The notes below the pieces were generated by a model. That model was given only the letters and a program-made list of their open reading frames with translations. It was not told where the DNA came from and made no database searches. 62,271 nucleotides of DNA from a virus (lineage: Duplodnaviria > Caudoviricetes): positions 1 to 62,271 of the IMG/VR virus record IMGVR_UViG_3300050135_000024. One strand, given 5' to 3'. A program made the position numbers and the translations under genes. Shown piece after piece: positions 120 through 60,807 of the stretch. Every line of letters starts with the position of its first letter. Position 1 is the first letter of the stretch.

Positions 120-1430
120 ATGATGACGACGTTCTCACCCGAGCAGCAGGCGGAGGTGGACCGGATCGTCGGCGAGCGCCTGGCGCGCGACCGGCAGACC
201 CGCGTTACACATGAGCCGCGCACCTACGGCCTTCACTCGCCGCACTCGTTCTACGGCGACTGCGCCGTGCGCCGGTATGAGGATCTGCTCGGGCACCGGG
301 CGGCTGTCGAACGGCTGGCGCGCTACAGCCGCGAGCTGGGGCATGAGATCGACCAGCGCTCCCGTGAGGGTGTGCGGGCCGAGCGGATACTCCGTGCGCG
401 GGAACGCGTGGGCGATGAAGGCGAGCACCGGGCCCGCACGAGCAAACTGCTTGCGGAGCTACGCGGGTTCGGCACCGATGGCGGCATCAGCGCGGCGGCG
501 GCCGGCGAAGCGGCGTCGTTCGTCTCGCCGGCAGTGCTGCTCGCCGAGTGGGCGCCGTTCCGCGGGGCGCAGCGAGTGTTCGCCGACGCATGCCGGTCTC
601 TGCCGCTCCCGGCGTTCGGTATGAAACTGTACGTGCCCTACGTCAGCGGCACGGATGCGGTGGGCGAACAGCCCGAGGGTGGCGCGGTGGCGGAAACCGA
701 GCCGACGACAGCACTCGAAGCCTCGCCGACGGTCGGCACCGTCACCGGGCAGATCACGACGAGCATGCAGCTACACGATCGCGGCGGAAGCGGCGGCGGC
801 AGCCTCGACGCGATCCTCGGCGGCCAGCTGCACGAGCAACTCGACGAAGCGGTCGACAAGTACGCCCTCAACCAGGCGATCAAAAACGGCACGACGATCG
901 CTGGCAACTCGGGCGCCTACTCGAATGAAAAGTTCCTGCAAGACCTAGCGACAGCACGCAAGGAAATCGCCGACGTCTCGGGCACCCGCCTGCGTGCCAC
1001 GCATGTGTTCTCGTCAACGGACTTCTACGGCTTCTACACCAGGCAGTTCGACAAAAACGAACGCCCGTTCATGACGCCGCACTTCGTGCCGAGCTTCCCG
1101 GTGTCCACTGGCGCCGATGACTTCGACGTAGGGGACGCGCCCGCATGGTCGCGCTTCCTAGGCACGGTGATGCCCGGAGGCGTCGTCTGGATGGCTGACG
1201 ACTCGATTCCCAATGTGGGAACCACGACCGGCATTCAGATCCTCGTGTCGGCGCCCGCGACAGCGATCATCCTGTTCAAGGACGATCCCGTGTTGACCAC
1301 GTTCGTGGAAACGAAAGCCGACACACTGCGAGTGATCTTGAACCTGCGGTGCTACGTGGGCGTGGCCACGAGGCATTCAGCGGGGACAAGCATCGTGAGC
1401 GGAGCCGCGTACACTTCGCTGCTCCACTAG
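120..1430 (+). CDS. Major capsid protein (HK97-like fold)
   Basis: 436 aa with a GGAGG RBS. Shows HK97-type elements: E-loop region VGEQPEGGAVAET, TVTGQITTSMQL, LDEAVDKYALNQ and C-terminal TLRVILNLRCYVG. Confidence 0.8.
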   Translation: MMTTFSPEQQAEVDRIVGERLARDRQTRVTHEPRTYGLHSPHSFYGDCAVRRYEDLLGHRAAVERLARYSRELGHEIDQRSREGVRAERILRARERVGDEGEHRARTSKLLAELRGFGTDGGISAAAAGEAASFVSPAVLLAEWAPFRGAQRVFADACRSLPLPAFGMKLYVPYVSGTDAVGEQPEGGAVAETEPTTALEASPTVGTVTGQITTSMQLHDRGGSGGGSLDAILGGQLHEQLDEAVDKYALNQAIKNGTTIAGNSGAYSNEKFLQDLATARKEIADVSGTRLRATHVFSSTDFYGFYTRQFDKNERPFMTPHFVPSFPVSTGADDFDVGDAPAWSRFLGTVMPGGVVWMADDSIPNVGTTTGIQILVSAPATAIILFKDDPVLTTFVETKADTLRVILNLRCYVGVATRHSAGTSIVSGAAYTSLLH

Positions 1431-15342: not shown

Positions 15343-15783
15343 ATGATCGTTGAGTTCGACACCAAGCAGTTCTCTGCTCTCGTCCGCGGCATCCGTGCAT
15401 CGGGACCTGCGGGTAAAGCTGCGGTGCGCACAACGATGCGCGAGAGTGCGGAGATCGTCAAGGCGGAGGCTGCGCAGCGGGCATCGTTCTCGTCGCGCAT
15501 CCCCGGCTCGTTGACAGCTCGGGCAACGGCGACGAACTTCAAGGTGTCTGCCGGCGGCGAAGCGGCGCCCAATGCTGCCCCGATCGAGAACAAAGGCCGC
15601 GGGCACGTCCGTCACCCTACGTTCTCGCCGCGGCCCGGCGTCCCAGAAAGGGTCGGCTGGACAAGCCAAAACAGCCCTCCGGCGTTCCTCTCGCCGGCGC
15701 TTGAGGCGAAGGAGGAGGAAATCGCCGAGCTGATCGCCGACCGGCTCGTGAAGGCGATAGCCGACGCGATCGGGGCACGCTGA
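15343..15783 (+). CDS. HK97 gp10-like neck/tail-completion protein
   Basis: AAPIE.G, PAFLSPALE; basic helical N-terminus. Confidence 0.65.
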   Translation: MIVEFDTKQFSALVRGIRASGPAGKAAVRTTMRESAEIVKAEAAQRASFSSRIPGSLTARATATNFKVSAGGEAAPNAAPIENKGRGHVRHPTFSPRPGVPERVGWTSQNSPPAFLSPALEAKEEEIAELIADRLVKAIADAIGAR

Positions 15784-18700
15784 TGCCAGTACGTACGATC
15801 ACGATCGTCGGGCTCGGCGACTTCAAGCAGCAGCAGGACGAACTCGTGCGGACCGGGGTCATCGCTGACAAGTCGGCTACCACGATGGCCGACTCGTCGA
15901 AACGGGCTGGCGCGGCAGCAGCAGAGCAGGCAAAGCTAGCCGGAGACTCGGCGGACAAGCAGATCGCGGCTGCGGCTCGCGCTGCTGCGGCGTACGAGAA
16001 GTCCCAGGAGACGATGAGCCGGGCGGCGAAGGCGGCCTCCCGCGCTGCTGTCGAGGCAGGCAAGGCGGCTGGTCTGAGTGCCGATCAGCAGGTCGCGGCC
16101 TCGAAGCGCACCGCAGCCGCGATGGACGCGCACTCCAAAGTCTCAAAAGTAGGAGGGGCCGTAGCGCTCGGCCTCGCTGGAGCGGCCGTGGAGGCAGTGA
16201 AACTCGGCATGGCCTACCAGACGGCGCAGGCGTCGATCCAGGGCGCGACGGGCCAGTCGGTGAAGTCGACCGAACAGCTCACGGGTGCCTTCAACACTCT
16301 GGGCACCGGGTCCCAGGCGGCGGTCGGCTCAGGCATGCAGATGGAGAGCGCCTACGCCGGGGTTGCCGGCCAGTTGAAGCTGACAGAGGGCCACGCGCTC
16401 TCCACCGCAGAAGCGACGAAGTTCAGCGCAGCGGCGAACAATCTGGCGGAGAGCGGCGCGGCCAGTCTCTCAGAAGCGTACAGCGCGACGGCGAAGGTGA
16501 TGCAGACCTTCCATCTCTCCGCAGACCAGGCGGCGGGAGTCACCGACACGCTGTACAGCACCTCGAAGGCCGTCAACGTACCCGTCGAACAGATCGCCTC
16601 GGCGATGGGCAAACTTCACGCCGGGCTGGGTGCCGTCGCACCGTCGATGCGGGACGTGTCAGGGCTGATGGTTGCGCTCGGCGGGCGTGGGCTGACGGGC
16701 GGCAAGGGGATTCAGGTTGTGAGCAGCGCGTTCCAGACGCTGCTCGGCAGCTCAAAGCCGGTCCATAGCGTCCTGAAAGACCTCGGCGTCACGCTCACCG
16801 ACTCAAGCGGCAAGTTCATCGGGATGGAAAAGGCGATCGGCCTGCTTCAGCCGAAGCTCGCGGCGCTCCCTGAAAGCGAGCGCCGGTACGCGGAGCAGAC
16901 GCTGCTAGGCAAGGGTGCCACGGAAAAGCTTGGGCAGGTGATACTCGCCGGTGTCCCGGCGTTCGAGGCGGCGACCGCGGCAGCGAACAAGCATGCGGCG
17001 GCCCAGAAAGCCGCGGAAGCGCAGGCCAAGACATTCAAGGATGAGATGGAGGCTATGAAGCACACCGTCGAGACGCTCGGCGGTGACCTCGGGCTGATCC
17101 TGATCCCGCCCCTGCAGAAGGTCGCGACAGTCCTCCTTGAAGGCATCAGCGTGCTCGAGAAGCACAAGGATGCGTGCATCGCGCTCGGCGCGGTCATCAC
17201 CGGCGTGCTCGGCACGGCAGTCGCGGTGTTCGCCTACGACAAGGCAGTGGCGTTCGGCAAGGGCGTGACGCGAATGACGGAAGGGCTGAAAAGCCTCGTC
17301 ACGAGCTCGAGTGAGACTGCGGGGGCAGTCGAGGCCGACCAGGCGGCGCAGGCCGCGGCGGTCGAAGCGAACGCGGCGAAGATGCAGGAGGCGAACGCTA
17401 CAACTGGCGGGAGCTTCACGGCCGTTGGCACGGACGCAGCGGCCGGCGAGACAGCCGTTGCCGGTGCCGTCGGCACGGAGGCTGGCGCCGTCACCACGGC
17501 GGATGGTGTCATCGAGGCCGACAACGTAGCTGCGGGTGCATCCTTTACTGCCCTGCTCGGGCCGATCGGCCTGGCGGCCGCCGCCGCTTACGGGGCCGTG
17601 AAGCTGATGGAGAAAGTCACAGGCGGACACGTCGACGAACTGCTCGGCGGCAATCAGCCTGGGGAATCGACCAAGGAAGGCAACGAAGGCGCAGTCAAGG
17701 GCCAGCCCTTCTCGCTGAAGTCGGGTGCGAACACTACCGCTACGAGCTTCGCTCAATCTGCGCTCGGCGCACTTGGAGCCCCGACGACGGGAAGCTCTCT
17801 CAAGGCATTTGAAGCATGGGAGGCGCAGGAGGGCGGCAACTGGCACAACTCCGCCAAGTACAACCCGCTTAACACGACACTGAACATGCCCGGTGCCGGC
17901 AACACCGGCTCGCAGGGCAACATCAAGGTCTACAAGGACTGGCAGCAGGGACTCGAAGCGACAGTAAAAACCCTGCAAGGCAGCTCATACAAGACCATCG
18001 TCGCCGACCTGAAGAAGGGTGCCAGCGTCTCAGAAATCGAGTCGGCGATCAACGCCAGCCCGTGGGGCACTCACTTCTCCAACACCGCCGGAGCCAGTCA
18101 GTCTGCGACGGGCGGCACGCACCTGTCAAAGTCCCAGATCAAGCAGGCCAGCGGCGGTGATCCCGCGCTTCAGCAGGCGATGGAAGAACAGGCCGGGCTG
18201 ATACCCAAAAAGAAAGCGCCCGAAGCGGAGAAAGAATACCTCGGCGCCAACAATCAGATCGTTGACGAAACGGCCGCGCAGCACGCACATAAGGCGCTGC
18301 TCGAAAAGAAAGCCAAGGCTGAAGGCAAGGAAACGACTGCGGCGATGGGCATCCCCGCAGGCGTCGTGACGATGCTGAAGACAGCGGAAGCGCTGATCGG
18401 GGCACCGTACAAGTCCGGCGGCGGGCATGGCTCATCTGCCGACGATCCGATCGCGATGCTGAAGCAGATCGGCATTGACTGCTCGGGGTTCGTCTCCAAG
18501 GTGCTCTCCTCGGGGGGCGTGCCGGGCGTGTCCGGTCTGACGACGCAGGGACTGTCGAAGAATCTCGCCAAGGGACCGGGCAAGTATGTGACGGTTGAGG
18601 ACCGCCCTGAAGGTTCGCAGGCGCACACGATCATCGACGTTCTCGGCAAATGGTTCGAGTCCGGCGGCAAGCTTGGCGGTGGTGTCAAGGCGTTGACCAA

Positions 18701-20312
18701 GGCGCAGGCAGGCCAGGAGCTGGCCGGCGGTGGCTTCGAGGCGTTCCACCCCGCCGGCCTGAACGCCGCTGTAAAGGGCGGCGTGTCCGCGACCGGCCTC
18801 AAGCAGATCACCAGTGCCGCGGAAGCCGCCGAAAAAGCGGAAACGAAACGGGTGACAGCGCTCGAAACGGCAGCAAAAAAAATGCTGGGCGAAACCACGC
18901 CAAGGGGGAGCCTGGCGAGCGCGAACCAGTCGGCTACCGTCCCGCAGCTCGAGAAAGTGCTCGGGGTTACAACGGGTGGAGCGATCGGCAAGAAGCTCTC
19001 GGGACTCCTCGGCGGTTCCGGCGGGCTCTCGCAAGGCACTCTGGAGCACGAGATCATGCCGGTGCTGGGAAAGAGCAGCGAAGCGTCCGGGACGGGCAAA
19101 GCCTTCGACAAGCTCATCTCAGAACTGAAGGGCGTCCACACCGCCGCGACGCAGGCGATGGTCGTTGGTCTGGAGCAGGCTCACAAGCAGGCGCTTGCGA
19201 ACCTTGGCCGCGAGCTGTACGCGGTGACGCAGGAAAAGGAGGCGCAGCAGCTCACGAACGAAGCGACCGAGCAGAAGGACCGTACCACTCAGGCTGCGAA
19301 CCTCGCCTCGAAGGAATTGCAGGTCGCGAAGGACACCTCGACACAGGTCACGGACGCGATGAGCGCCTCGGCGACGCAGATCGACGATGCGACGACGATC
19401 ATCAAGGACTCGTTCGCAGAGATGGTTGAAGCGGTCTCCAACGCCACGCAGAAGATGGCGGACATCGCCTCGGGTGAAGTCACCGCGACCCAGGACACGA
19501 CAGCCACGAAGATCGCGGAACTCGGAGAGCGCGGGAAGTACGGTCTCGAACTCATCGCACAGAAGCTCGAAGTCCAGCTCGACCAGATGAAGGAGACCTA
19601 CGACGTCCAGATCCAGCAGGCGAAGATGGCTTTGGACCAGGCGAAGATTTCAGGACAGGCGCTGGTCGCCGAGAAGCAGCAGGGTATGGACCTGTTGCAG
19701 GCCCATCAGGATGCGCTGGTCGGGGTCGCACAGGCCCACTCGGACGCGGTGCAGGTCGCCGGCGACCAACAGGAGGTCACGGCGCAGGGCATCGTCGACG
19801 CGGCGCAGATCTCAAGCGATGCTCGCACTGACGCGACCTACCTCGCCACCGTCCTCGTCGCTGGCGGCACGAAGGCCCAGCAGGATGCCGCCAAGGGCAT
19901 GCAGACATGGGCGACAGCCAGCGGTGCGGCGCTGATGGCCAACGCAGAAGCGCACAACAAAACAGTGGAAGTTGAAGCGAACAGGGCGATCCAGGGCGCG
20001 CAGGCAAACGTCGCGGTGGCCACGGGCGAAGCGAAGACAGCAATCTCCAACGCCCAGCAGGCTTTGGCTCAGGCCGAAGGGTCCGCGAAGGTGGCGATAG
20101 AAAACGCAGAACTGGGCCTGAGAAGCATTGAAGACACGGCGAAGGTCGCGGAGGCCAAGCTCGAAGGGGAAGTCGCGATCACCAGGGAGCGCTCACAGGT
20201 CCAGTACGCGGGTTCGGGCCTGGTGGTCAATCAGTACGGGATGAACCCGAGTGATGCAGCAGGCAACGCAGCAGAGCTGGGTTGGCTGCTGCGAACCATG
20301 ACGCCGCTATAG
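15783..20312 (+). CDS. Tape measure protein with lysozyme-like and NlpC/P60 domains
   Basis: 1509 aa, Ala-rich; TMP core LGVTLTDSSGKF; WEAQEGG..YNPLNTT; GIDCSGFVS..H. Confidence 0.9.
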   Translation: MPVRTITIVGLGDFKQQQDELVRTGVIADKSATTMADSSKRAGAAAAEQAKLAGDSADKQIAAAARAAAAYEKSQETMSRAAKAASRAAVEAGKAAGLSADQQVAASKRTAAAMDAHSKVSKVGGAVALGLAGAAVEAVKLGMAYQTAQASIQGATGQSVKSTEQLTGAFNTLGTGSQAAVGSGMQMESAYAGVAGQLKLTEGHALSTAEATKFSAAANNLAESGAASLSEAYSATAKVMQTFHLSADQAAGVTDTLYSTSKAVNVPVEQIASAMGKLHAGLGAVAPSMRDVSGLMVALGGRGLTGGKGIQVVSSAFQTLLGSSKPVHSVLKDLGVTLTDSSGKFIGMEKAIGLLQPKLAALPESERRYAEQTLLGKGATEKLGQVILAGVPAFEAATAAANKHAAAQKAAEAQAKTFKDEMEAMKHTVETLGGDLGLILIPPLQKVATVLLEGISVLEKHKDACIALGAVITGVLGTAVAVFAYDKAVAFGKGVTRMTEGLKSLVTSSSETAGAVEADQAAQAAAVEANAAKMQEANATTGGSFTAVGTDAAAGETAVAGAVGTEAGAVTTADGVIEADNVAAGASFTALLGPIGLAAAAAYGAVKLMEKVTGGHVDELLGGNQPGESTKEGNEGAVKGQPFSLKSGANTTATSFAQSALGALGAPTTGSSLKAFEAWEAQEGGNWHNSAKYNPLNTTLNMPGAGNTGSQGNIKVYKDWQQGLEATVKTLQGSSYKTIVADLKKGASVSEIESAINASPWGTHFSNTAGASQSATGGTHLSKSQIKQASGGDPALQQAMEEQAGLIPKKKAPEAEKEYLGANNQIVDETAAQHAHKALLEKKAKAEGKETTAAMGIPAGVVTMLKTAEALIGAPYKSGGGHGSSADDPIAMLKQIGIDCSGFVSKVLSSGGVPGVSGLTTQGLSKNLAKGPGKYVTVEDRPEGSQAHTIIDVLGKWFESGGKLGGGVKALTKAQAGQELAGGGFEAFHPAGLNAAVKGGVSATGLKQITSAAEAAEKAETKRVTALETAAKKMLGETTPRGSLASANQSATVPQLEKVLGVTTGGAIGKKLSGLLGGSGGLSQGTLEHEIMPVLGKSSEASGTGKAFDKLISELKGVHTAATQAMVVGLEQAHKQALANLGRELYAVTQEKEAQQLTNEATEQKDRTTQAANLASKELQVAKDTSTQVTDAMSASATQIDDATTIIKDSFAEMVEAVSNATQKMADIASGEVTATQDTTATKIAELGERGKYGLELIAQKLEVQLDQMKETYDVQIQQAKMALDQAKISGQALVAEKQQGMDLLQAHQDALVGVAQAHSDAVQVAGDQQEVTAQGIVDAAQISSDARTDATYLATVLVAGGTKAQQDAAKGMQTWATASGAALMANAEAHNKTVEVEANRAIQGAQANVAVATGEAKTAISNAQQALAQAEGSAKVAIENAELGLRSIEDTAKVAEAKLEGEVAITRERSQVQYAGSGLVVNQYGMNPSDAAGNAAELGWLLRTMTPL

Positions 20313-35471: not shown

Positions 35472-35720
35472 TCAGGCCGCATAGCTCGTTGAGCTGGCCG
35501 CGAAGCGTGCGGCCGTCGAAGTCGGGTCCCGGGTCTCGGCCTGCCGGCACCCGCAGCTAACCGTACGGTCGGGGCGCAACTGGTCCTTGCGCACGATGGT
35601 CTTGTTTCCGCAGTCGCAGAGGCACAGCCAGCGGGAGTGGCGGCCAGTATCCGACGGGCGCGGATTCAGCGCCCAAAGCCTGCCGAACCGCTGGAACGTC
35701 AAGTCGATTCGGGCGGCCAT
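35472..35720 (-). pseudogene. Truncated HNH endonuclease (N-terminal domain only)
   Basis: DLT.QRFGRL...WLCLCDCGN....L....SCGC with no nuclease domain; similar to the N-terminus of 38296-38832. Confidence 0.6.
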
Positions 35721-35749
35721 TGCTCAAACACCCTACGCTGGGAGGGCCG

Positions 35750-36823
35750 ATGCGTCTGCTGCTGATCCTCGCTAGTAGCGTCATTATGTTTCTGCTCGCC
35801 GGCTGTGGCGCGCACCCCTCGCGCCTTCCCTCCAAGCAGCCAGCGAGCACGAAAGTGTCGAGGCTCGAGCGAACTAACTCAACAACGACAACTTCGCCCA
35901 CGCTCACCTTCTCTGAGCCGAGTGGCCCGAAGTGCGTCACCCGCGTGCCTCCCTCGATGGGCGAATGCGTCCGCCAGGCGATGCAGGCCGAAGGCAAGAA
36001 GCTCGGTCTCGTCACGGCCACGGAGTCGCAGTGCGCGGACTGGTCGCAATGGCAAGGCTGGTATCCACAGACCGCGGGCCTTCATTGCGTCATCATCCAG
36101 GCCGCGTTCGGGCTGAACCAGGAGCCCTCTCTCCGCGAACAGATCCGCGACGCGCGCGACCACGGTCTCCCCTACGGCGTCTATGACTTCGGGGAGCCCG
36201 GCTTCTCCGGCGCCTCAGAGATGGCGTTCACGCACGAGCTCGTGCCTCACGCCCCGTTGGGCTACTGGTTCGACGCCGAGGTGTCCGGCGTGTTCTGGCG
36301 CTCCTGCGAGTTCACCAGCGAGGCGCAGGCTCTCGGCGTCCCGATCTTCGGCGTGTTCTCCTACCCCGGCGGATATGCGGCCGGCGGCGGTGGGCATTGC
36401 GCGGGCTACCTGTGGGCGAGCGAGTGGAATGTCGCCGGCCCGTCGCCGTTCGGCGGCTACCCCGCATCGGCGATCGTGCTCTGGCAATCCTGTGGCACCT
36501 GCTCGCGGTTCGGGGTGACGACAGACCTCGACCAGAACCGGGGGCTGATCGAACTCAACGAGAAACCCCCAAAGCCGAAGCCCAAGCCCAAACCGCCAAG
36601 CCGTGGCCAGCTCAAGCGGCAGCTCCACAGCGACCTCGCGACGCGCACGACACTCCGCGCGCTCGAGGCCAAGCACGACTGCCGCAACCCACCCTTCCAC
36701 CGTCCCCTGCCCGACACGGCCGGCTACCGGCACGCCTGCTACGGCGTGTGGGTCCCGCAAGGCAGGAGCACGGACAAGCAGATCGTCGCCCTCGAACACG
36801 AGCTGAGGCGGGCGCTCGCCTGA
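35750..36823 (+). CDS. Endolysin, GH25-like muramidase with lipoprotein signal
   Basis: LLAG-C lipobox; ADWSQWQG, GVYDF, FDAE, LWQ and DLD; PKPKP linker. Confidence 0.7.
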   Translation: MRLLLILASSVIMFLLAGCGAHPSRLPSKQPASTKVSRLERTNSTTTTSPTLTFSEPSGPKCVTRVPPSMGECVRQAMQAEGKKLGLVTATESQCADWSQWQGWYPQTAGLHCVIIQAAFGLNQEPSLREQIRDARDHGLPYGVYDFGEPGFSGASEMAFTHELVPHAPLGYWFDAEVSGVFWRSCEFTSEAQALGVPIFGVFSYPGGYAAGGGGHCAGYLWASEWNVAGPSPFGGYPASAIVLWQSCGTCSRFGVTTDLDQNRGLIELNEKPPKPKPKPKPPSRGQLKRQLHSDLATRTTLRALEAKHDCRNPPFHRPLPDTAGYRHACYGVWVPQGRSTDKQIVALEHELRRALA

Positions 36824-39456: not shown

Positions 39457-39610
39457 GGCTCGTCTCATCCTGGGGGGAAGCTGTCGAGGTCGTGGCCTGT
39501 ATAGCGGGGCTCATCGGTCTCCGTCTGCATATAAGCTGTAACGAGATTCGCTGTATCAGGCGGGAACTCTCGCCGACTGGGTTCTGTCGAAGACATCAAC
39601 CGAAAGGAAC

Positions 39611-39823
39611 GTGACCGTGCCACTCTCAAGCCTTGAGGCAGCGCTCGCGGCTCTCATCGTCGGTATCGGCAACGCCGTCGTCGCCCTCGGAGTGATCGGG
39701 GTCGAACAGGCGACGACCCTGGAGTCCACGATCGTCGGCGTGATCGCCGGGATCTTCGTGCTCGCCAACGCAGTGATCCACTCGGGGGTCTCGCGAGCGA
39801 CCAGCAAGGACGCGAGCGAGTAG
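39611..39823 (+). CDS. Putative holin
   Basis: 70 aa with two TM helices and a charged C-terminus; GAAAGGA RBS. Confidence 0.6.
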   Translation: MTVPLSSLEAALAALIVGIGNAVVALGVIGVEQATTLESTIVGVIAGIFVLANAVIHSGVSRATSKDASE

Positions 39824-40741
39824 GTGGGTCCTCTCGGCTGCATCATCCCCAAGGACAAACCGCACGTGCTGGCGAGCCCGCTCTCAGCGACACCGGGTGG
39901 GGCACCGACGGACGTGCCGGTGGTGGTCGGCTTCAACTGGTACACCAGCTTCGACACGCCGAAAGAGATCGAAGGCACCTTCCACCTACCGGATGTGGCG
40001 AAGGGCGAAGACCTCGGCAGCATCCGGGGTGGCCACTGCTTCTGCTTCGAGCCGATGTATTCGGTGGTCTTGGACCGGCGTCCTGCTCAGGTGTTCTACA
40101 ACCAGGGCCAGGAAGGCGCCTGTGTCGGGTTCGGCAACAGCCGGGCGATCACGATCCACAAGGCCGCTCATCCGATGGCCACGCCGACAGTTGAGCAGGT
40201 CGAGGCAGGAGCGAGAGCGGCGTTCTTTCAGGACGACCTCGGCGGCCACATCAAGGGGAAGTGGACGTTCGACACGATTCCCGAGGGGGGGCGCGAGAAC
40301 TACCGCGAAATGGTCCGAGCGGTGCTGGGCGCTGCCCTCGCTGCTGGCGAAGTCGAGTTCTTCGACGCCTTCTGGCTCTACGACGAAGCCCGGCGTCTCG
40401 AAGGCACCTACCCGTCCGGCGAAGGCGCGAGCGTCAAGGCCGGCGCCGAGGTGCTGCTCGAGAAAGGCCACCGGCTCCAGACCGGCCAGCAGGTCTGCAC
40501 GCGAGACGCCGGCGACGCCGCTCCCTCGCTGATCGATGGGATCAAGACGATCCGGTGGGCCACCACGGTCGAGGAAGTGCTGGCCGCACTCGCCCGGCCC
40601 GGTGCCCAGGCGATTCCCTTCGAGAACAGCTGGGGACTTGCTTATCCCTCGGCTGAGACATCGGTGGTCTGGATGCCCGTCGCCACCTTCGCTCAGCTAC
40701 TCGCTGAAGGCGGAGAAGCCGGGGTCTATGTAGAGGCGTGA
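39824..40741 (+). CDS. Papain-like (C1) cysteine peptidase with permuted motif order
   Basis: QGQEGACVGF, GGH and ENSWG motifs. Confidence 0.7.
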   Translation: MGPLGCIIPKDKPHVLASPLSATPGGAPTDVPVVVGFNWYTSFDTPKEIEGTFHLPDVAKGEDLGSIRGGHCFCFEPMYSVVLDRRPAQVFYNQGQEGACVGFGNSRAITIHKAAHPMATPTVEQVEAGARAAFFQDDLGGHIKGKWTFDTIPEGGRENYREMVRAVLGAALAAGEVEFFDAFWLYDEARRLEGTYPSGEGASVKAGAEVLLEKGHRLQTGQQVCTRDAGDAAPSLIDGIKTIRWATTVEEVLAALARPGAQAIPFENSWGLAYPSAETSVVWMPVATFAQLLAEGGEAGVYVEA

Positions 40742-40756
40742 GGTAGGATCGCAGAT

Positions 40757-40853
40757 GCGCTCGTAGCTCAGTGGTTAACCGTAACCTTCGGGGTGCGGGA
40801 AGAGCAGCGGTCTTTCAAGCCGCAGGTCGCGTGTTCGATTCACGTCGGGCGCA
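40757..40853 (+). tRNA. tRNA-Glu(UUC) with D-loop hairpin insertion
   Basis: Acceptor GCGCTCG/CGGGCGC, D-stem GCTC/GAGC, anticodon arm GCGGT-CTTTCAA-GCCGC, T-arm GCGTG-TTCGATT-CACGT; TAGGAT upstream. Confidence 0.8.
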
Positions 40854-41200
40854 TGCCAGAATCGGGGAGGTGAGCATGGCTCCGCTGTCTCTGTGGTCAT
40901 ATCCGGCGTTCGACGAAGCCCTGCATTGGGCAATCCGCACGCAGCGCGAGGTCAAGCGGATCGCGCGCCGAATCCTACCGCCGTGGAGGTGGGTACCCCC
41001 CGCGCAGCCGCTCGCGCCCGCGCTCGCATGCCGGGTCATCCACGCGCCGTTCGATGTCGCGCACTGGTTGCCGAACATGCCGAGGGGTCACGAAACCCTG
41101 TAGCGGGGCGGCGCCCGCGTTACCAACGCCGATGGGTGTGCCGAAACGCAGCAGGCACGCGGGTTAATTGGACGCAAGACCCCGCACCATCCACGCTCCG

Positions 41201-41241
41201 GAAGCCCTGTCTGGCCATGCGCTGGGCAGGGCTTTCGTCGT
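41201..41241 (+). terminator. Intrinsic terminator-like hairpin
   Basis: gaagccctgtctggc...gctgggcagggcttt followed by cgtcgtt. Confidence 0.55.
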
Positions 41242-42066
41242 TCAGGAGCACGCGGGCGTAAGATCCCGGCTGACCCTCTCCGGTCCCTCATGAGCGCCCC
41301 GCATTGGCCCCCTCGGGGCTGAGGCGGGGCGTTCGGTCGTAGAATCCTTGCTCCGGGTCTCGCTGCCCGAGAAGCAACAGCGAGTGGTGGCCTTGGCTGG
41401 AGCCGCGTCTGACTTCGGTCGGGCGCGGCTCTTTGTCGTTCTGGGGACGGAAGGGGCCGGAGTCGAACCGGCTCGCCCGTGTGGACTCAGCGGCTTAGCA
41501 AGCCGCCCGCTGACCGTTCGCTTCCCTTCCCTATCGTCGGTCCTGCCCCAACCACCGGGCGCGTCTAACCGGGACGCCGGGCTGCTCGCGTTCGGCGATG
41601 CGCTCAGCGCGTGTGAGGAATTCGCTCCGAGGAATGTCTTGGGCTTCGGCGGCTCGTGCTTGGCCCGCACTTTAGATGCGAGCCGGTCGGCATCGATCGT
41701 AATACGGCTGTGAACCCAGATCACCTGCCAGCTCTGGTGAACGCGCAGCCGAGCGCGCATCGAGGCGCGGCACTGGCTCGCGCGGTCCTCCGACGCCGGG
41801 TCCCAATCGCCCTCCCAGAAGCGCGCGACCGCCTGGCAGTCCGTGGCGAACGTCGCCACGTTCATCCCGCGCTCATGGGCCAGCTCCATCGCCCACAGAA
41901 CCGCCTCGAACTCTGCGATCACGTTTGTGGGCGTCTGTGCGTAGCGCCCCTCCGGCCCGATAGCCCCCGTCACCGCGAGCCCCGCGCGACCGGCGCGAAA
42001 GGACGCGTCAGTCACGACGCTCGCAAAGGAGGCCAATGCTGGCTCATCGCGATCGACGGGACGCAA
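41242..42066 (-). CDS. RNase HI-like protein (domain ~42020-41660; ORF runs on through the tRNA)
   Basis: TDAS, TN.IAEFEAV, TDC and ADRLA match RNase H catalytic D/E/D/D. Confidence 0.7.
   Translation of the reverse strand: MRPVDRDEPALASFASVVTDASFRAGRAGLAVTGAIGPEGRYAQTPTNVIAEFEAVLWAMELAHERGMNVATFATDCQAVARFWEGDWDPASEDRASQCRASMRARLRVHQSWQVIWVHSRITIDADRLASKVRAKHEPPKPKTFLGANSSHALSASPNASSPASRLDAPGGWGRTDDREGKRTVSGRLAKPLSPHGRAGSTPAPSVPRTTKSRARPKSDAAPAKATTRCCFSGSETRSKDSTTERPASAPRGPMRGAHEGPERVSRDLTPACS
41400..41440. terminator. Hairpin between convergent RNA units
   Basis: gagccgcgtctgac-ttcg-gtcgggcgcggctc followed by tttgtcgtt. Confidence 0.6.
41448..41530 (-). tRNA. tRNA-Ser(GCU)
   Basis: GGAAGGG/CCCTTCC acceptor, GCGGC-TTGCTAA-GCCGC, long variable arm, GCCGG-TTCGACT-CCGGC, G discriminator; weak D-arm. 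Confidence 0.75.
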
Positions 42067-42360
42067 GTTTCGGCGCTCGCATCACATGAAGCGCCGCCTC
42101 GCGTAGTCGACACGACGCCACCGCGTGAGACGAACGGCACCGCGCCGACTGCCCCGGCACCCGAGTCCCAGCGTGCTCACGCCGCAGCGAGCGGACGGTT
42201 GCCATTGCTCGTCCAGGGCCTGCTTGAGCAACTTCCGTCTGACGGAGCGTGGACGCGGGCGCAGGCACGGGCGTGGCTGCAAATGGCGGCGCTTGCGTTT
42301 GACGTCGTATACGACCTTGGTCCTGACGACGGCCGCCCACTCTGGCCGGCCGATAGGGAC

Positions 42361-43334
42361 CCCCAGAAATGAGCCCACACCCTCCCTTCCAAAAGGAGGT
42401 CCAACTTGGGCTCAGAGCCGGGCGGGCAAGCAGCAGGCGCCGCCCCGTTTCGGCGTCTCCACACAAGGTAAGGGCGGTCGTGACAGCGACCGTCCTTACC
42501 GGAGATTCTACCTACATATCGGCTGGAACGCCAGCAAAAGCGACCCCCGCACGGATAGCCAGCCTCGTAGCGGAGCTTGAGGGACGTGGCGATCGACGCC
42601 TCGGACATGCCCGCGTATGCGAACGGGCAGCGCTACAAGTACAAGGGCGGCCCGGAACGCGAGAAGTACAGCGACCCCGACGCCACCTGGGGGCACCGCT
42701 CCGCCGTGTCCACACGGAAGGGTGGCGGCTTCTACGGCTACCGCCTGCACATGGCCGTGTGCGCCAAGACCGATCTTCCGCTCGCGTGGCGGGTCGAGAC
42801 GGCCAGCATGAACGAAACCCAGGCCGTCGCGCCACTGCTGGACAAGCTGCACGCGCTCGGGATCGACCCGGAGACGTGCGCGATGGACAAGGGCTACGAC
42901 GCCGGGCGCATGTACCAGGCGTGCGCTGACCGGGACATCGCGCCGGTCATCTGCTTGAAGAAAACCCCCGCCGTCAAGCGCGGCGAGCACAAGCCCCCGA
43001 CTTGCGAGCATGGCGAGTGGAGGTTCGGCGGGGCGGACCGCAAGCGCGGAGCTACCAAGTGGCGTTGCCCGACCGGGGAGTGCAAGCCCGCGTCCGTGTG
43101 GATCAAGGCCGACCGGCTGCACCCGCTGATCCCGCGCGAGACGCTTCGCTTCAAGGGCCTGTACCGTCGCCGCGCGTCGGTAGAGCGCGGGTTCGGCAGG
43201 CTCAAGAACGAATGGGCGCTCGCGCCGCTGCGAGTGCGCCGGATCGAGCGGGTGCGGCTACACGCCGACCACCAGCGTGAGATCCGCATAGCAGCCTAGA
43301 AACTTCTTCGTCCATCTCGCGTTCTTTTCTGGGG
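42361..43334 (+). mobile_element. Decayed IS (IS5/IS4-like DDE) with terminal inverted repeats
   Basis: Ends CCCCAGAAATGAGC and (reverse complement) CCCCAGAAAAGAAC, 12/14; encloses a transposase remnant. Confidence 0.6.
42480..43299 (+). pseudogene. Internally deleted, frameshifted DDE transposase
   Basis: AIDAS, DPDATWG, YGYRLH, DKGYD and Y..R.SVER.F.RLK; the short N-terminal piece is in a different frame. Confidence 0.75.
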
Positions 43335-43446
43335 AAAACCCCGAAACTAGGCCGATCTCTGGCATACTAGAAGTTCCAACGGGGATTGAAAACTGGCCGT
43401 TGATGTGCTATACGCGGCGGACTTGAACTTTGATCGACTGGAGAAC

Positions 43447-43674
43447 ATGATGACGAGCATCGGATTTGGTGGAGGGGAGGTTATTCAAGTCGATCTATCG
43501 CTGGATGAGGTGCGCAAACTTCTTCAGGATGCTCTTGCTAAGCGCGAGATGGCTGAGATCAAGGCCCAAAATGGCGAGACAGTCCTCATCAACCCAGAGC
43601 AAGTCAAGGTTCTGCAGAACTCCGCGGGCGGTCCTGAGCGCTTTCCCCGGAATCAGGACCAGCTAGCCGTCTAG
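43447..43674 (+). CDS. Small hypothetical protein (lower GC)
   Basis: GGAG RBS; VLINPEQV. Confidence 0.6.
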   Translation: MMTSIGFGGGEVIQVDLSLDEVRKLLQDALAKREMAEIKAQNGETVLINPEQVKVLQNSAGGPERFPRNQDQLAV

Positions 43675-44089
43675 ACCGCTCCCCGACCGTCTTGGCTGGC
43701 ATAGGGCCTGCCTTAGGTGGCATGATGCCCTCCTTCTGCGGTGGGGTGCCCGTCTTTGATGGGAGCGACCCCTCAACCAGCGACTCGCTGACGGTCATCG
43801 TCTTTGTGTAGCCGGTTGGCATGTCGGCTGACAGCTCGATGCCACCGTCGCCAGAGGCTTTGATGTTGAGCTTGAGCACGCCGAGCGCTAGCAGAAAGCC
43901 CGCTATCACGAGGAGTACGCCCGCAAGGACGAACAGGATGCGAAGCGGTCCCCAGAGACCAGCAAACACCGCTGCTACGGCAATGAGAGCGATGCCCACG
44001 AGAACCATAGCTCCACAGATGCCTATATGGAGCCGCCCCGGGGGGTCTGGATGCATCTCCTCGGTTTCGACCCTCGGTCCAGAAGCCAC
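43604..44089 (-). CDS. Two-TM membrane protein
   Basis: Two long hydrophobic segments. Confidence 0.5.
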   Translation of the reverse strand: MASGPRVETEEMHPDPPGRLHIGICGAMVLVGIALIAVAAVFAGLWGPLRILFVLAGVLLVIAGFLLALGVLKLNIKASGDGGIELSADMPTGYTKTMTVSESLVEGSLPSKTGTPPQKEGIMPPKAGPMPAKTVGERSRRLAGPDSGESAQDRPRSSAEP

Positions 44090-44227
44090 AACACCATTTT
44101 AGGTGCGCGTATCGTTTAGAACAAAGAATGCCGCAATCTGCGAACTATTCGGGCTGCGCTAACCGTAGGCGCAAGGCAACCGAGTGAGCGCCACGCCCAA
44201 CGGTCGACGTGGCGCCCTGGCGGAGCG

Positions 44228-44494
44228 TCAGACGACTTGGCCGACCATCTGCACGAGCCGTACGGCAGCACGGGAGGCGAACACGAACCCGTCACTCGTC
44301 TGGTAGATCAACCCGGCTTGCAGCAGGCCACAGACGGCCACGTCCGCGTCCCTCGCGTTAGCGAGCTGCCGGGCGAGGTCCGGGACCGACCAAACCGGCT
44401 GCCCATCGCCGGGTTCGGTCAAGAGATACAGCAAGTCTCGTTCGGCTCCGTCGAGCCGGACGGCAGGACTCTCAGGGGTAGGCTGGTCAGGCAT
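44228..44494 (-). CDS. wHTH-like hypothetical protein
   Basis: WSV.DLARQL......AV..L..AGLI. Confidence 0.55.
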   Translation of the reverse strand: MPDQPTPESPAVRLDGAERDLLYLLTEPGDGQPVWSVPDLARQLANARDADVAVCGLLQAGLIYQTSDGFVFASRAAVRLVQMVGQVV

Positions 44495-44642
44495 GGGAGT
44501 ACACGCTCCTGTGTCATGGCCGGGGGGCAGTTCGCGCTGTCGCCCCGGCCACTTGGTTGATTGGAGCGAGGACCGTAGGCCCCCAAAACGACGGAATGAG
44601 CGGCGCTTTCCGGCTTATACAGTGGCTGCCCATATGTGACCA

Positions 44643-45014
44643 ATCACATTCGGAGAGCTGCGCCGTCTCTACGACGCACCGCACACCATCGCTGAGATGG
44701 TCGAGATCACGGGGATTCCCTCGACAACGATTTGGCGTCGGCTCGATGTCAGCGGCGGCACGCGGGGGCGCGCTCATCACCGTCGCCGATCCCACACCCA
44801 TCCCCCGGTCACGTACGAGGTGCTTCGCCAGGTGCAGGCCATGTACGTGGAGCAGGAAATGTCAACCCGTGAGATCGCCGTGGCCCTCGGGATTGATCGC
44901 CGATCAGTCGGGTATCGACTCCGCAAGGCTGGGGTCCAACGCCGCGACCACGACGAGGCGATCCGGCTTGCCGTCGCTCGACGTCGCGCAACACCAGCAG
45001 TAGCTCCGCCGTGA
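44643..45014 (+). CDS. Tandem HTH DNA-binding protein (start problematic)
   Basis: Two HTH units: TIAEMVEITGIPSTTIWRRL and STREIAVALGIDRRSV.YRL. Confidence 0.6.
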   Translation: MTFGELRRLYDAPHTIAEMVEITGIPSTTIWRRLDVSGGTRGRAHHRRRSHTHPPVTYEVLRQVQAMYVEQEMSTREIAVALGIDRRSVGYRLRKAGVQRRDHDEAIRLAVARRRATPAVAPP

Positions 45015-57596: not shown

Positions 57597-58157
57597 GTGA
57601 GACTCGCGTACGCTGATCCGCCCTACCTCGGCTGCTGTGGCCTGTACGGCCACGATCACCGTGAGGATTGGGGATGCTGGGACTTCGCGGTGAGCCACGC
57701 GAAGCTGATTGAGCACCTAACGATCCGCTACCCGGATGGCTGGGCGCTAAGCGCCAGCTCCCCTTCGCTGAGGACGCTTCTGCCGCTTTGCCCCGAGGAT
57801 GTGCGTGTCGCTGCGTGGGTCAAGCCGTTCTGTGCGTTCAAGCGTGGCGTGCGCCCCTGCTATGCATGGGAGCCAGTGAGCTTCCGCGGCGGCCGCAACC
57901 CCCCCGGCACGCCCCACGCGCCCCCAGAGAAGAACGGCGCGCAGACAACGCCCAAGGACTTCATCGCCGAGTCGATCACGCTACAGAAGGGGCTGACGGG
58001 CGCTAAGCCCCTGAAGGTCTGTCGCTGGATTCTCGAACTACTCGGCTACCAAGAGGACGACCAGCTGGTGGACCTATTCCCTGGCACTGGAGCAATGGAC
58101 GATGCGTTGGCTCGGCCTCCCCTGTTCGACACCCTGGAGCCAGTGACGTGGCGCTAA
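57597..58157 (+). CDS. Compact DNA adenine methyltransferase-like protein
   Basis: YADPPY, WVK, WEP, GAKP and DLFPGTG. Confidence 0.75.
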   Translation: MRLAYADPPYLGCCGLYGHDHREDWGCWDFAVSHAKLIEHLTIRYPDGWALSASSPSLRTLLPLCPEDVRVAAWVKPFCAFKRGVRPCYAWEPVSFRGGRNPPGTPHAPPEKNGAQTTPKDFIAESITLQKGLTGAKPLKVCRWILELLGYQEDDQLVDLFPGTGAMDDALARPPLFDTLEPVTWR

Positions 58158-59308
58158 GCGGCTTCGCGATCAATGGCACGGGCTTCTTCTCCCCACCGTT
58201 GACGATCGCTGGCCCCGTCCGGGCCGATTGCTCGAGCGAGGACCACGCGGGCAGCGTTTACGTCACGGTCTGCTCGGTAGCCGCATGCGCACTCATGTAC
58301 GCGCTGCTCGAGCGTCTTGGCCGCGATCGTGCCGCACTCCGCGCACGTCCTGCTCGTGTTCCTTGCATCGACCGGGATCACCTGGCGGCCAGCATCTTCC
58401 GCTTTGTCCGCCAGGTACGTGAGGAACTGTCCCCACCCCTGATCGTTCACGTCTCGTGCGAGGGCGCTCCGGGCGAGCCCACGCACATTCAAGTTCTCGA
58501 CCGCGATCACGTCGAAGCGCTCGACCAGCTGCCGGCTCAGCTTGTGCGCGTGGTCGCGACGCACATTGCGCTCGTGTTCACGGTGGCGGCCGAGCAGCGT
58601 CGCCGCCTTGCGCCTGCCGTGAGAGCCGCGCTGACGCCGGGCGACCCTGCGCGCGGCGCGTCTGACCTTCGCGGCTGCGGCGCGCTGCGCCCGCGGCCCG
58701 GCGATCAGCTCGCCAGTCGAGAGGGCCGCGAAGGTGGAGACGCCAAGATCGAGCCCGACGCTCTCGCCCGTCGCCGGCAGCGGCCGGGGTGCCACGCCGT
58801 CGAGCGCGATCGACGCGAACCATCGGCCGTTGCGGCGTGTCACCTGCGCGGTGCAGAGCTTCGCGCCAGCGGGGAGCGCCCGGTGCATCTTGAGCTTGAC
58901 GTGCCCGACGGCCTGCAAGCGCAGCCGGCCCGCGTCCGTGACCGCAGCGCCATTACCGATCGCCCACTCCAGCGTGTCGAACCGCTGACGACTGCGGAAC
59001 CTCGGATAGCCCGGCTTCTCGCCCGCCTTGCATCGACGGTAGAACGCCTGCATCGCTCGATCGAGACGGCGCAGCGTGGCCCGCTGCGAGTTGAAGCTGA
59101 CCTCGGGGTCGAGGATTCCCTCAGCACGGAGCGTCTTGAGCTCGGCATCCTGGTCATAGAGGCTGACCGACCGGCCCTGCTCGTGCCACGCGTCGCGGCG
59201 ATGCTGGAGCGCCGCGTTGTACAGGTCGCACGCTTCGCCGAGCTGCTGCTCGAGCGCCTGTGCCTGCCTGCGCGTCGGATACAGGCGATATCGGTAGGTG
59301 CGGCGCAC
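58154..59308 (-). CDS. tnpB: TnpB RNA-guided endonuclease (IS200/IS605 family, no tnpA)
   Basis: YRYRLYPT, GYPRFR, RuvC D-E-D (GLDLG, AVENL, DRDVNAA) and CxxC zinc finger; right end GTCAC at 58147-58143. Confidence 0.92.
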   Translation of the reverse strand: MRRTYRYRLYPTRRQAQALEQQLGEACDLYNAALQHRRDAWHEQGRSVSLYDQDAELKTLRAEGILDPEVSFNSQRATLRRLDRAMQAFYRRCKAGEKPGYPRFRSRQRFDTLEWAIGNGAAVTDAGRLRLQAVGHVKLKMHRALPAGAKLCTAQVTRRNGRWFASIALDGVAPRPLPATGESVGLDLGVSTFAALSTGELIAGPRAQRAAAAKVRRAARRVARRQRGSHGRRKAATLLGRHREHERNVRRDHAHKLSRQLVERFDVIAVENLNVRGLARSALARDVNDQGWGQFLTYLADKAEDAGRQVIPVDARNTSRTCAECGTIAAKTLEQRVHECACGYRADRDVNAARVVLARAIGPDGASDRQRWGEEARAIDREAA

Positions 59309-60102: not shown

Positions 60103-60807
60103 CTAATCGCCCCAGTCGATCGCCCTCATCTCGGCGGCGAGTTCGGGGTCGTTGACGTGAAGGTAGATGCTGGTGGTCTCGATCGAGGCGTGTCCCATGA
60201 GCTGCTGGAGCTTGAGGATCGAGACGCCGTGGCCCAGGCAGTCGGTCGCAAAAGTGTGGCGCAGCGTGTGCGGGTGCGCCTTCTTTGTGTCGATGCCGGC
60301 CTTGAGCATCCGCCGTCGAATGCTCTTATAGGTCGAGTCGGTGGTGACGCCGAGGTTCGGCAGCTCGCCGTGGCGGCTACATGCGCCACGACGGATTGAG
60401 ATGAACAGCGGCGCGTCGTCCTTGCGGGTGCGCGAGTAGCGCCCGCGCATCTGAAGCCAGCGGGTCAGCAGATCGAGCGTCGCAGCGTCGGCGTAGACGG
60501 TGCGCTCCTTCTTGCCCTTCCCGGTCACGCGAATATTGCCCGTCTCCCAATCGACGTCGCCGAGCCGGACACCGCACGCCTCGTGGATACGCAACCCACA
60601 GCGATACATCAGCTGCATGATGCAGCGGTCGCGGAAGCCTGTCGGCACTCGCATGTTGGGCGTGCTCATCAGCTTCTTGACCTCTGCGGCGGTGAGCACG
60701 CCCGGCAGCCGCCGCCCCTTGCGCGGGCCTCGGTGCGCGGTGCGACTGAGTGCGGTTTTGCTCGCAGGCACGGGCGCCTCTTTCCGGGCTGGCAGGGAGT
60801 GCGACAA
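60103..60807 (-). CDS. Tyrosine recombinase (catalytic domain only, Xer/Fim-like)
   Basis: GLR..E, GKG.K.R, HPHTLRH, GH and Y; lacks core-binding and arm-binding domains. Confidence 0.9.

Follow-up and report, generated by a model that had tools for sequence, protein, structure and literature searches.

The 62,271-base viral record IMGVR_UViG_3300050135_000024 (hereafter the window, meaning this whole stretch of DNA; estimated to be 94% complete, with 65.4% G+C) carries a genuine transfer RNA (tRNA) gene with a fifth arm. The gene, at 40757-40853 on the plus strand, encodes a 97-nt tRNA with the anticodon UUC, a complete cloverleaf and an additional hairpin within its D-loop. A 96-nt tRNA of the same build is found on chromosomal contigs titled Solirubrobacterales. 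We think it probable that the phage gene specifies a functional elongator tRNA for the decoding of GAA as glutamate, that it is a copy of the unusual tRNA-Glu(UUC) of the probable hosts, and that the hairpin is kept as a fifth arm.

Structure and conservation of the five-armed tRNA

The cloverleaf can be read directly from the sequence (Table 1). All 21 stem positions form standard pairs, three of them of the G-U type, in stems of 7, 4, 5 and 5 bp, and the variable loop has 5 nt. As in tRNAs generally, G18 and G19 are present, the T-loop is of the TTCRA type, and the 7-nt anticodon loop contains U33. The Rfam tRNA model RF00005, which has a cut-off of 29 bits, scores 40757-40853 at 59.2 bits over its full length (model positions 1-71 of 71) and places 26 nt after GGU as an insertion. 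A covariance model (R1) that we built for the five-armed family scores the window tRNA at 97.2 bits and the copy in genome G001 at 114.9 bits. Ordinary tRNAs have a D-loop of about 7-11 nt, whereas that of the window tRNA has 32 nt (40770-40801). For tRNA-Ser, the range given in an excerpt of a review is 8-11 nt (PMC7609411). The extra hairpin (40779-40798) accounts for 20 of these nucleotides, and its eight stacked positions comprise seven standard pairs and one A.G mismatch (40784 with 40793).

When the insert of the window was folded in isolation, 10 of 200 shuffled sequences were equally stable. By itself the window sequence is little better than chance, and the argument depends on how it compares with its relatives. 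We therefore examined an alignment (termed A2) of 44 distinct sequences, comprising 9 viral representatives, including the window, and 35 genomic ones; two sequences with inserts of 40 and 43 nt were left out. All six core pairs of the hairpin show changes on both sides, and 96.2% of the cells are paired, with two of the core pairs each using six different standard pair types. When partner columns were slid as a control, 36-50% of cells were paired. The whole structure is 98.7% paired compared with 85.3% in shuffles, none of which (0 of 500) reached the observed values. The hairpin of the phage likewise differs from those of the host variants by changes on both strands that keep the pairing. 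In addition, 30 of 32 distinct inserts fold as a hairpin with no more than 10 of 200 shuffles as stable.

The AGTGGT columns and the two A residues that precede the hairpin are invariant in all 44 sequences, and the helix length and the flanking A residues are constant across the family. By inspection, the hairpin loops vary and include UUCG, UACG, UCAC, UAAC and GAAA, among others. Because helix length and flanking A residues are constant while the loop is variable, selection acts on the shape of the arm and not on a sequence motif. An earlier note on this DNA, made from the sequence alone, had described a tRNA with a UUC anticodon and an extra D-loop hairpin and had suspected that the hairpin is under selection. 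The stems and the Rfam score bear out the former, the hairpin being exactly as described, and the covariation in 44 homologues supports the latter.

Occurrence in viral contigs and bacterial chromosomes

A search pattern that required this D-arm, an extended D-loop and a correctly spaced T-loop matched 61 loci in a viral collection, 52 of which have a fully paired 7-bp acceptor stem. The scaffold shared with the window consists of a GCGC-type acceptor stem, AGTGGT, two A residues, the hairpin, two further A residues, GAGC and the discriminator A. It carries the UUC anticodon at loci L015, L021, L032, L050, L056, L059 and L060, the last of which lies on the same contig as L002. A second viral scan, anchored on the 3' half only, returned six of these UUC contigs again and none that was new. 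Where viral contigs carry tRNA arrays, the five-armed form occupies the Glu(UUC) slot, accompanying 28 canonical tRNAs in L050, 14 in L032 and 4 in L056.

A DNA search of the tRNA region against a phage collection gave no match. Relatives of the 305-aa gene immediately upstream of the tRNA are encoded in three viral contigs (L001, L002 and L003), and L002 carries the identical 97-nt tRNA in the same place. Around the tRNA, 118 of 941 aligned positions (~12%) are not the same in the window and L002, yet the two agree without a single difference over the 225 nt (40706-40930) that enclose it. The phage copy of the tRNA is under constraint.

In cellular genomes, the same pattern matched at least 120 loci, and nearly all of those listed lie on chromosomal contigs titled Solirubrobacterales, Solirubrobacteraceae or Thermoleophilia, several of them megabases long. 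The host version is a 96-nt tRNA(UUC) with a 7-bp hairpin at the same site of the D-loop. The insert is thus widespread in viral contigs and Solirubrobacterales genomes; it is not unique, which the earlier note had named among the grounds for refutation. Outside the insert, the window tRNA is identical to host variants at 66-68 of 74 positions, and it shares with the five-armed Solirubrobacterales family the hairpin of about 7 bp at the same site, the invariant A residues, the GCGC-type acceptor stem and the discriminator A. It differs from most host copies by one extra linker nucleotide and by the A.G mismatch.

Of the 401 genomes in the genus of G001, 368 contain the exact pattern; if G575 and G336, which are unpublished, are set aside, the count is 366 of 399, and a reversed-pattern control gave 0. 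In the genus of G003, the pattern occurs in 21 of 26 genomes. In an even sample across the order it was present in 1 of 61 genomes, which was G001 itself. The five-armed tRNA is therefore a trait of at least two large genera and not, by this pattern, of the whole order. These counts rest on one exact pattern, which misses variants with another D-arm sequence, and many of the host genomes are incomplete. In covariance-model surveys of 151 genomes across the class and 41 within the family, only G001 and G172 scored above 100 bits; as these surveys scored 27-102 of about 2000 first-look candidates per genome, we do not use them as evidence of absence and let the exact-pattern scans carry the distribution.

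The complete 3.23-Mb chromosome of G001 has 47 tRNA genes, one of which is 96 nt long and has the sole UUC anticodon. Its other Glu tRNA is a canonical one with the anticodon CUC. ARAGORN labels the 96-nt gene an "undetermined" tRNA. In the complete genomes G001, G002 and G003, the five-armed gene is the only place where a UUC-plus-T-loop pattern falls inside a tRNA, and the five-armed tRNA is the sole decoder of GAA in all three. Genomes of sister genera in the same family (G074, G154, G156 and G068) have a canonical tRNA-Glu(UUC) of 73-75 nt with a short variable loop, found by an anticodon-plus-T-loop pattern after a BLAST search with the host Glu(CUC) had missed them. Since the sister genera keep the normal gene and the positive genera have only the five-armed one, the latter must have replaced the former. 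As a separate observation, the chromosome of G001 also encodes a 73-nt class I-shaped tRNA with the anticodon UAA (L203, G001:C1:496985-497097; 57.5% G+C) besides its normal long-arm tRNA-Leu(UAA).

The hosts of the phage are probably members of these two large uncultured genera of soil Actinomycetota, titled Solirubrobacterales, an assignment that draws on the tRNA signature. An attempt to assign a host through prophage relatives was abandoned, as the matches to the phage capsid protein were too distant.

Decoding, fate of the hairpin and alternative explanations

In the hosts, GAA is a glutamate codon. Among 976 ortholog pairs at 99 host loci, the codon aligned to GAA was again GAA in 57.8% of cases, GAG in 19.9% and AAA in 1.0%, and AAG was not among the eight commonest partners of GAA. 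As GAA interchanges with GAG and not with AAA, the host five-armed tRNA must deliver glutamate. The body of the tRNA, in turn, resembles that of a lysine tRNA. With the insert removed, the closest of the other 46 tRNAs of G001 is Lys(UUU), which matches the host copy at 81% and the window copy at 76% of positions, compared with 61% for the host Glu(CUC). The Lys-like body that the earlier note had recognized is thus real, and the similarity suggests that the body arose from a Lys gene in which position 36 changed. A single gene for glutamyl-tRNA synthetase (GluRS; PF00749) was found in each of G001, G002 and G003, so that a dedicated second GluRS can be rejected for these three genomes. No GluRS insertion common to the three positive genomes was found; a 7-residue insertion is present in G001 and G002 and not in G003.

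Phage tRNAs that match the codon use of the phage are known from T4 and from many actinobacteriophages. In the window, GAA makes up 385 of 1169 Glu codons (32.9%) over all genes and 239 of 610 (39.2%) in the structural region (1-26000), compared with 3765 of 16943 (22.2%) at the host loci (chi-square against the host, p 4.7e-17 for the whole phage and 1.7e-22 for the structural region). These counts agree with an earlier impression, gained by eye, that the tail genes are rich in GAA. The hosts have a single gene for the five-armed tRNA, and the bias fits the usual model in which phage tRNAs top up the decoders of over-used codons.

We propose the following mechanism. In the hosts, the 73-75-nt tRNA-Glu(UUC) has been displaced by the 96-nt tRNA, which joins a Lys(UUU)-like body to a UUC anticodon and carries its 7-bp hairpin behind G18 and G19, where the 3' part of the D-loop is variable. 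The phage tRNA would be transcribed within a plus-strand operon and excised by host RNase P and 3' processing enzymes, its CCA end would be added by the host CCA-adding enzyme, and the single host GluRS would charge it for the decoding of GAA. It would thereby supplement translation, and the tRNA supplied would have to be of the host's odd type. The hairpin would most likely stay in the mature tRNA as a fifth arm directed away from the L-shaped core. The nucleotides that follow G19 (20, 20a and 20b) are variable and solvent-facing, and a helix at this site could project without breaking contacts of the core.

Given that selection keeps the helix and the flanking A residues while leaving sequence and loop free, the hairpin would act by its shape. 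It most likely serves to promote or prevent recognition of a Lys-derived body that has to be charged with glutamate, or it is a tolerated insertion that needs to remain compact. Three candidates fit the data: a shape element that lets GluRS accept the Lys-derived body or that excludes lysyl-tRNA synthetase (LysRS) or other enzymes, a neutral insertion that must remain compact, and protection from tRNA-targeting nucleases. The proposal that the hairpin is a device of the phage, making the tRNA a decoy or resistant to nucleases, is not supported, as chromosomes of the probable host lineage normally carry tRNA-Glu(UUC) with this very hairpin.

That the hairpin is retained in the mature molecule seems to us quite likely. 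If it were instead an intervening sequence, either spliced out or cleaved without religation to leave a two-piece tRNA, the mature molecule would be four-armed; the insert does resemble some protein-processed inserts in being a discrete stem-loop at one fixed site whose sequence is free to vary, and introns in the D-loop reportedly occur in archaea. We nevertheless regard this explanation as improbable. The tRNA splicing endonuclease domain PF01974 was found in none of four genomes (the phage, G001, G002 and G003), while a positive control detected it in four archaea. The geometry that its substrates would need, two 3-nt bulges separated by a 4-bp helix, was absent by inspection, the helix having 9-10 nt on its 5' side and 3 nt on its 3' side. 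An insert of 20-26 nt is far too short for self-splicing, as the catalytic core of group I and II introns comprises hundreds of nucleotides, and no Rfam intron family scored above cut-off in the window. An 8-bp stem is also short for RNase III. Twelve listed sequencing runs recorded as RNA contain most of the sampled words of the host tRNA, and in each of the four soil or sediment RNA libraries whose contigs were aligned there are contigs that contain the whole host tRNA with its hairpin, without a gap or joint, and none that joins across it. One of these contigs (X4 record 4) continues for at least 31 letters on either side of the hairpin, and the other three have 24 letters on one side followed by differing flanks; such contigs cannot reveal RNA ends or abundance, and they do not establish the absence of a spliced form. 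Taken together, these results speak against the intron that had been suggested for this gene.

Alternatively, the phage copy could have no use in translation. It might be a passenger acquired from a host, a pseudogene in decay, or a decoy or sponge that diverts a host nuclease directed at tRNAs or some other factor that binds them. This would agree with the absence of the tRNA from the close relatives L001 and L003, with the mismatch and the additional linker nucleotide, and with the failure of ARAGORN to recognize the window tRNA. We consider it quite improbable, as the gene scores highly on the family model and retains every stem intact, together with the GG of the D-loop and the loops of the T-arm and anticodon arm. 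The gene is also identical in two phages despite the divergence of its flanks, the phage uses GAA more than the host does, and phages with full tRNA arrays keep exactly the five-armed form for Glu(UUC). Charging with lysine, or with a mixture that would make GAA recoded or ambiguous in hosts and phages, is suggested by the proximity of the body to Lys(UUU), by its dissimilarity from the host Glu(CUC) and by the discriminator A. It is very improbable in view of the codon alignments and of the share of host Glu codons that GAA supplies, and LysRS depends on U36, whereas position 36 of the five-armed tRNA is C.

Several observations weigh against our preferred reading of the gene as a working tRNA-Glu. 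The upstream gene is present in L001 and L003 without the tRNA at the site, which indicates that the tRNA is dispensable for this group of phages. The whole window tRNA has a folding z-score of -1.79, which is not significant (11 of 200 shuffles fold as well), and its minimum-free-energy fold differs from the cloverleaf. In Escherichia coli, GluRS relies on U11-A24, an augmented D-helix and the lack of residue 47; the window tRNA has C11-G24 and a 5-nt variable loop and so lacks such elements in its body. The short variable loop is seen in the canonical Glu tRNAs of this family of bacteria. The host assignment has as its basis the tRNA signature and a similar G+C content (65.4% against 67.8%), and matches to the phage capsid protein are distant (31-33% identity) and occur in 2 of 121 genomes of the genus. 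The contigs from RNA libraries concern the host gene and not the phage gene, and as they extend into the flanks they may represent precursor RNA or contaminating DNA. Finally, the scaffold also occurs with the anticodons CCU (L007 and L018), UGC (L033) and UUU (L037), and L018 encodes a canonical Glu(UUC) beside its five-armed CCU tRNA. With a UCU version (L036) also on the same scaffold, the hairpin is not tied to glutamate alone.

These other versions raise the possibility that the five-armed architecture spreads with phages. A more far-reaching reading, which we think unlikely, is that the molecule is a mobile chassis spread by phages, with a Lys(UUU)-derived body whose D-loop hairpin serves as an identity switch, through charging by the single GluRS or exclusion of LysRS and other enzymes. 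It would have displaced the canonical tRNA-Glu(UUC) in at least two genera and could be re-aimed at other rare codons by a change of anticodon. If this were true, a tRNA architecture borne by phages would have become essential to the machinery of the host genetic code. Some of the viral contigs with CCU, UGC, UUU or UCU versions have 43-57% G+C, and the UGC version lacks the G3.U70 pair that AlaRS presumably requires. Some genomes of the host genera contain extra five-armed copies with the anticodons GCG, UUU, ACC and UGU (G240, G301, L085 and L144).

Relation to known tRNAs and genomic context

Like a canonical bacterial tRNA-Glu(UUC), the five-armed tRNA has stems of 7, 4, 5 and 5 bp, G18 and G19, a TTCGA T-loop, and a 7-nt anticodon loop with U33 and UUC, and it is the sole GAA decoder of its hosts. 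It is unlike that tRNA in its 32-nt D-loop with a 20-nt hairpin, its Lys(UUU)-like body, its 5-nt variable loop and its GCTC/GAGC D-stem. In common with other codon-matching phage tRNAs, it is encoded by a single tRNA gene in a phage operon and reads a codon used more by the phage than by the host. In contrast to them, it copies a lineage-specific, non-canonical host tRNA and so marks a probable host, and for the same reason standard tRNA finders miss it; ARAGORN makes no call at 40757-40853. Because such finders miss or miscall the five-armed gene, genomes and phages that carry it will be annotated as lacking a tRNA-Glu(UUC).

A natural extra or altered helix that leaves the L-shape intact and is read by shape is also seen in the variable arm of class II tRNAs (Leu, Ser and bacterial Tyr) and in the 6-bp D-stem of tRNA-Sec. 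The D-arm of the latter is read by SelA and PSTK, according to an excerpt of a review (PMC7609411). In the five-armed tRNA, unlike these examples, the extra helix resides in the D-loop and not in the variable region. Archaeal and eukaryal introns at non-canonical positions, which are of the bulge-helix-bulge type and cut by EndA, are similar in that a stem-loop is inserted within the D-loop of a tRNA gene; the present case differs by the lack of such a motif, by the lack of an EndA domain in the phage and three host genomes, and by its bacterial setting. Engineered tRNAs tagged with a small hairpin or aptamer are still active in translation, as stated in an excerpt of one report, where the tag is artificial and placed in the variable arm (PMC7590224), whereas in the five-armed tRNA, which is fixed in hundreds of species, the hairpin is natural and located in the D-loop. 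Full-text searches of one literature library, which did not extend to supplementary files, returned no description of a D-loop hairpin or insertion in a bacterial or phage tRNA. Likewise, excerpts of a 2020 review of non-canonical natural tRNAs contain no bacterial or phage D-loop hairpin (PMC7609411).

The four-armed cloverleaf has an exception in this natural bacterial elongator tRNA, which has five arms and alone decodes a sense codon in hundreds of species. The tRNA is also a signature of its lineage, through which phages can be linked to uncultured soil hosts. It further indicates that a helix can be accommodated in vivo in the 3' part of the D-loop, a point relevant to the engineering of tagged or orthogonal tRNAs. 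With a Lys-like body and a Glu anticodon, it makes a natural change of tRNA identity directly testable.

Family matches point to the window being a temperate tailed phage (Table 1). The tRNA begins 15 nt beyond the stop codon of the 305-aa gene, and it is followed after 22 nt by a 75-aa open reading frame (ORF). Among all loci compared, this ORF was seen only in the contig of L002 and L060, and a link between it and the tRNA was rejected on that ground. The strong terminator-like hairpin further downstream probably ends the transcription unit that contains the tRNA. A consensus scan found no sigma-70-like promoter in 39500-41700.

Table 1. Features of the window and five-armed viral loci with anticodons other than UUC. 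Positions without a prefix refer to the window.
Feature	Position	Strand	Basis or remark
Five-armed tRNA-Glu(UUC) gene, 97 nt, CCA not encoded	40757..40853	+	RF00005, R1, stems by direct reading
Acceptor stem	40757-40763 with 40846-40852	+	7/7 pairs, one U-G
D-stem GCTC/GAGC	40766-40769 with 40802-40805	+	4/4 pairs
D-loop 5' part AGTGGTTAA, with conserved GG at 40773-40774	40770..40778	+	Alignment A2
Extra D-loop hairpin (fifth arm), TTCG loop	40779..40798	+	Direct reading, covariation, folding
3' linker GAA, hairpin to D-stem	40799..40801	+	Alignment A2; last two A residues invariant in family
Anticodon stem	40807-40811 with 40819-40823	+	5/5 pairs including U-G
Anticodon TTC, reads GAA; 7-nt loop CTTTCAA	40814..40816	+	Direct reading, Rfam alignment
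T-arm, loop TTCGATT	40829-40845	+	5/5 pairs including G-U
Discriminator A, no encoded CCA	40853	+	Direct reading
Major head protein	120-1430		Family match
Tape measure protein	15783-20312		Family match
Endolysin-like gene	35720-36823		Family match
Upstream gene, 305 aa	39824..40741	+	ORF list; weak peptidase-family match (phrog_16701, E 5.3e-9)
Downstream ORF, 75 aa	40876..41103	+	No family match; preceded by ribosome-binding-like GGGGAGG
Terminator-like hairpin, 15 pairs then T-rich tail	41399..41432	+	Consensus scan only
Integrase-like gene, 234-aa ORF	60103-60807	-	Family match, only to C-terminal part of phage integrases
Five-armed scaffold, CCU	L007:2151-2248
Five-armed scaffold, CCU	L018:3503-3600
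Five-armed scaffold, UGC	L033:2235-2329
Five-armed scaffold, UUU	L037:11813-11922		40-nt insert
Five-armed scaffold, UCU	L036:3719-3811

The integrase-like ORF adjoins an insertion sequence (IS)-type transposase gene (58154-59308, minus strand; phrog_506, E 3e-91), and the integrase may be truncated or interrupted. A segment of about 3.7 kb (41286-44987) is absent from L002 and looks like an inserted mobile segment, with an ORF (42577-43299) that matches transposase-like phage families. Within it, ARAGORN calls a class II tRNA-Ser(GCU) on the minus strand (41448-41531). The anticodon arm and T-arm of this candidate are good, but its D-arm is weak and its acceptor stem contains an A.C mismatch; it scores 37.3 bits on the Rfam tRNA-Sec model (cut-off 47) and lies below the tRNA cut-off. 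On contig L002, positions 2046-2121 match the Rfam CyVA-1 RNA motif at 49 bits (cut-off 41.4), for which the window has no match above cut-off.

The viral scan also revealed other unusual tRNA-like genes. Adjoining the five-armed Glu tRNAs of L015 and L021 are genes (L015:1003-1125 and L021:9631-9719) that have the same acceptor stem and odd T-loops and carry a hairpin within the anticodon loop. They could be duplicates that have degenerated, or they may represent another kind of unusual RNA. A second, A+T-rich family comprises 34 loci among L004-L064 (for example L004:7875-7964 and L008:2005-2095), on contigs that are mostly 75-320 kb long. Its hairpin, of the GGGAGA-TTTA-TCTCCC type, is located in the 5' part of the D-loop, and its anticodon region (..YGAAAR..), in an apparent 8-nt loop, suggests the anticodon GAA (Phe). 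Unrelated viral tRNAs with the anticodons GUU, UCG and GAA carry D-loop hairpins of 26-39 nt (L010:2152-2259, L012:3845-3952, L012:3719-3840 and L052:166-262), and helices in the D-loop thus seem to recur in phage tRNAs.

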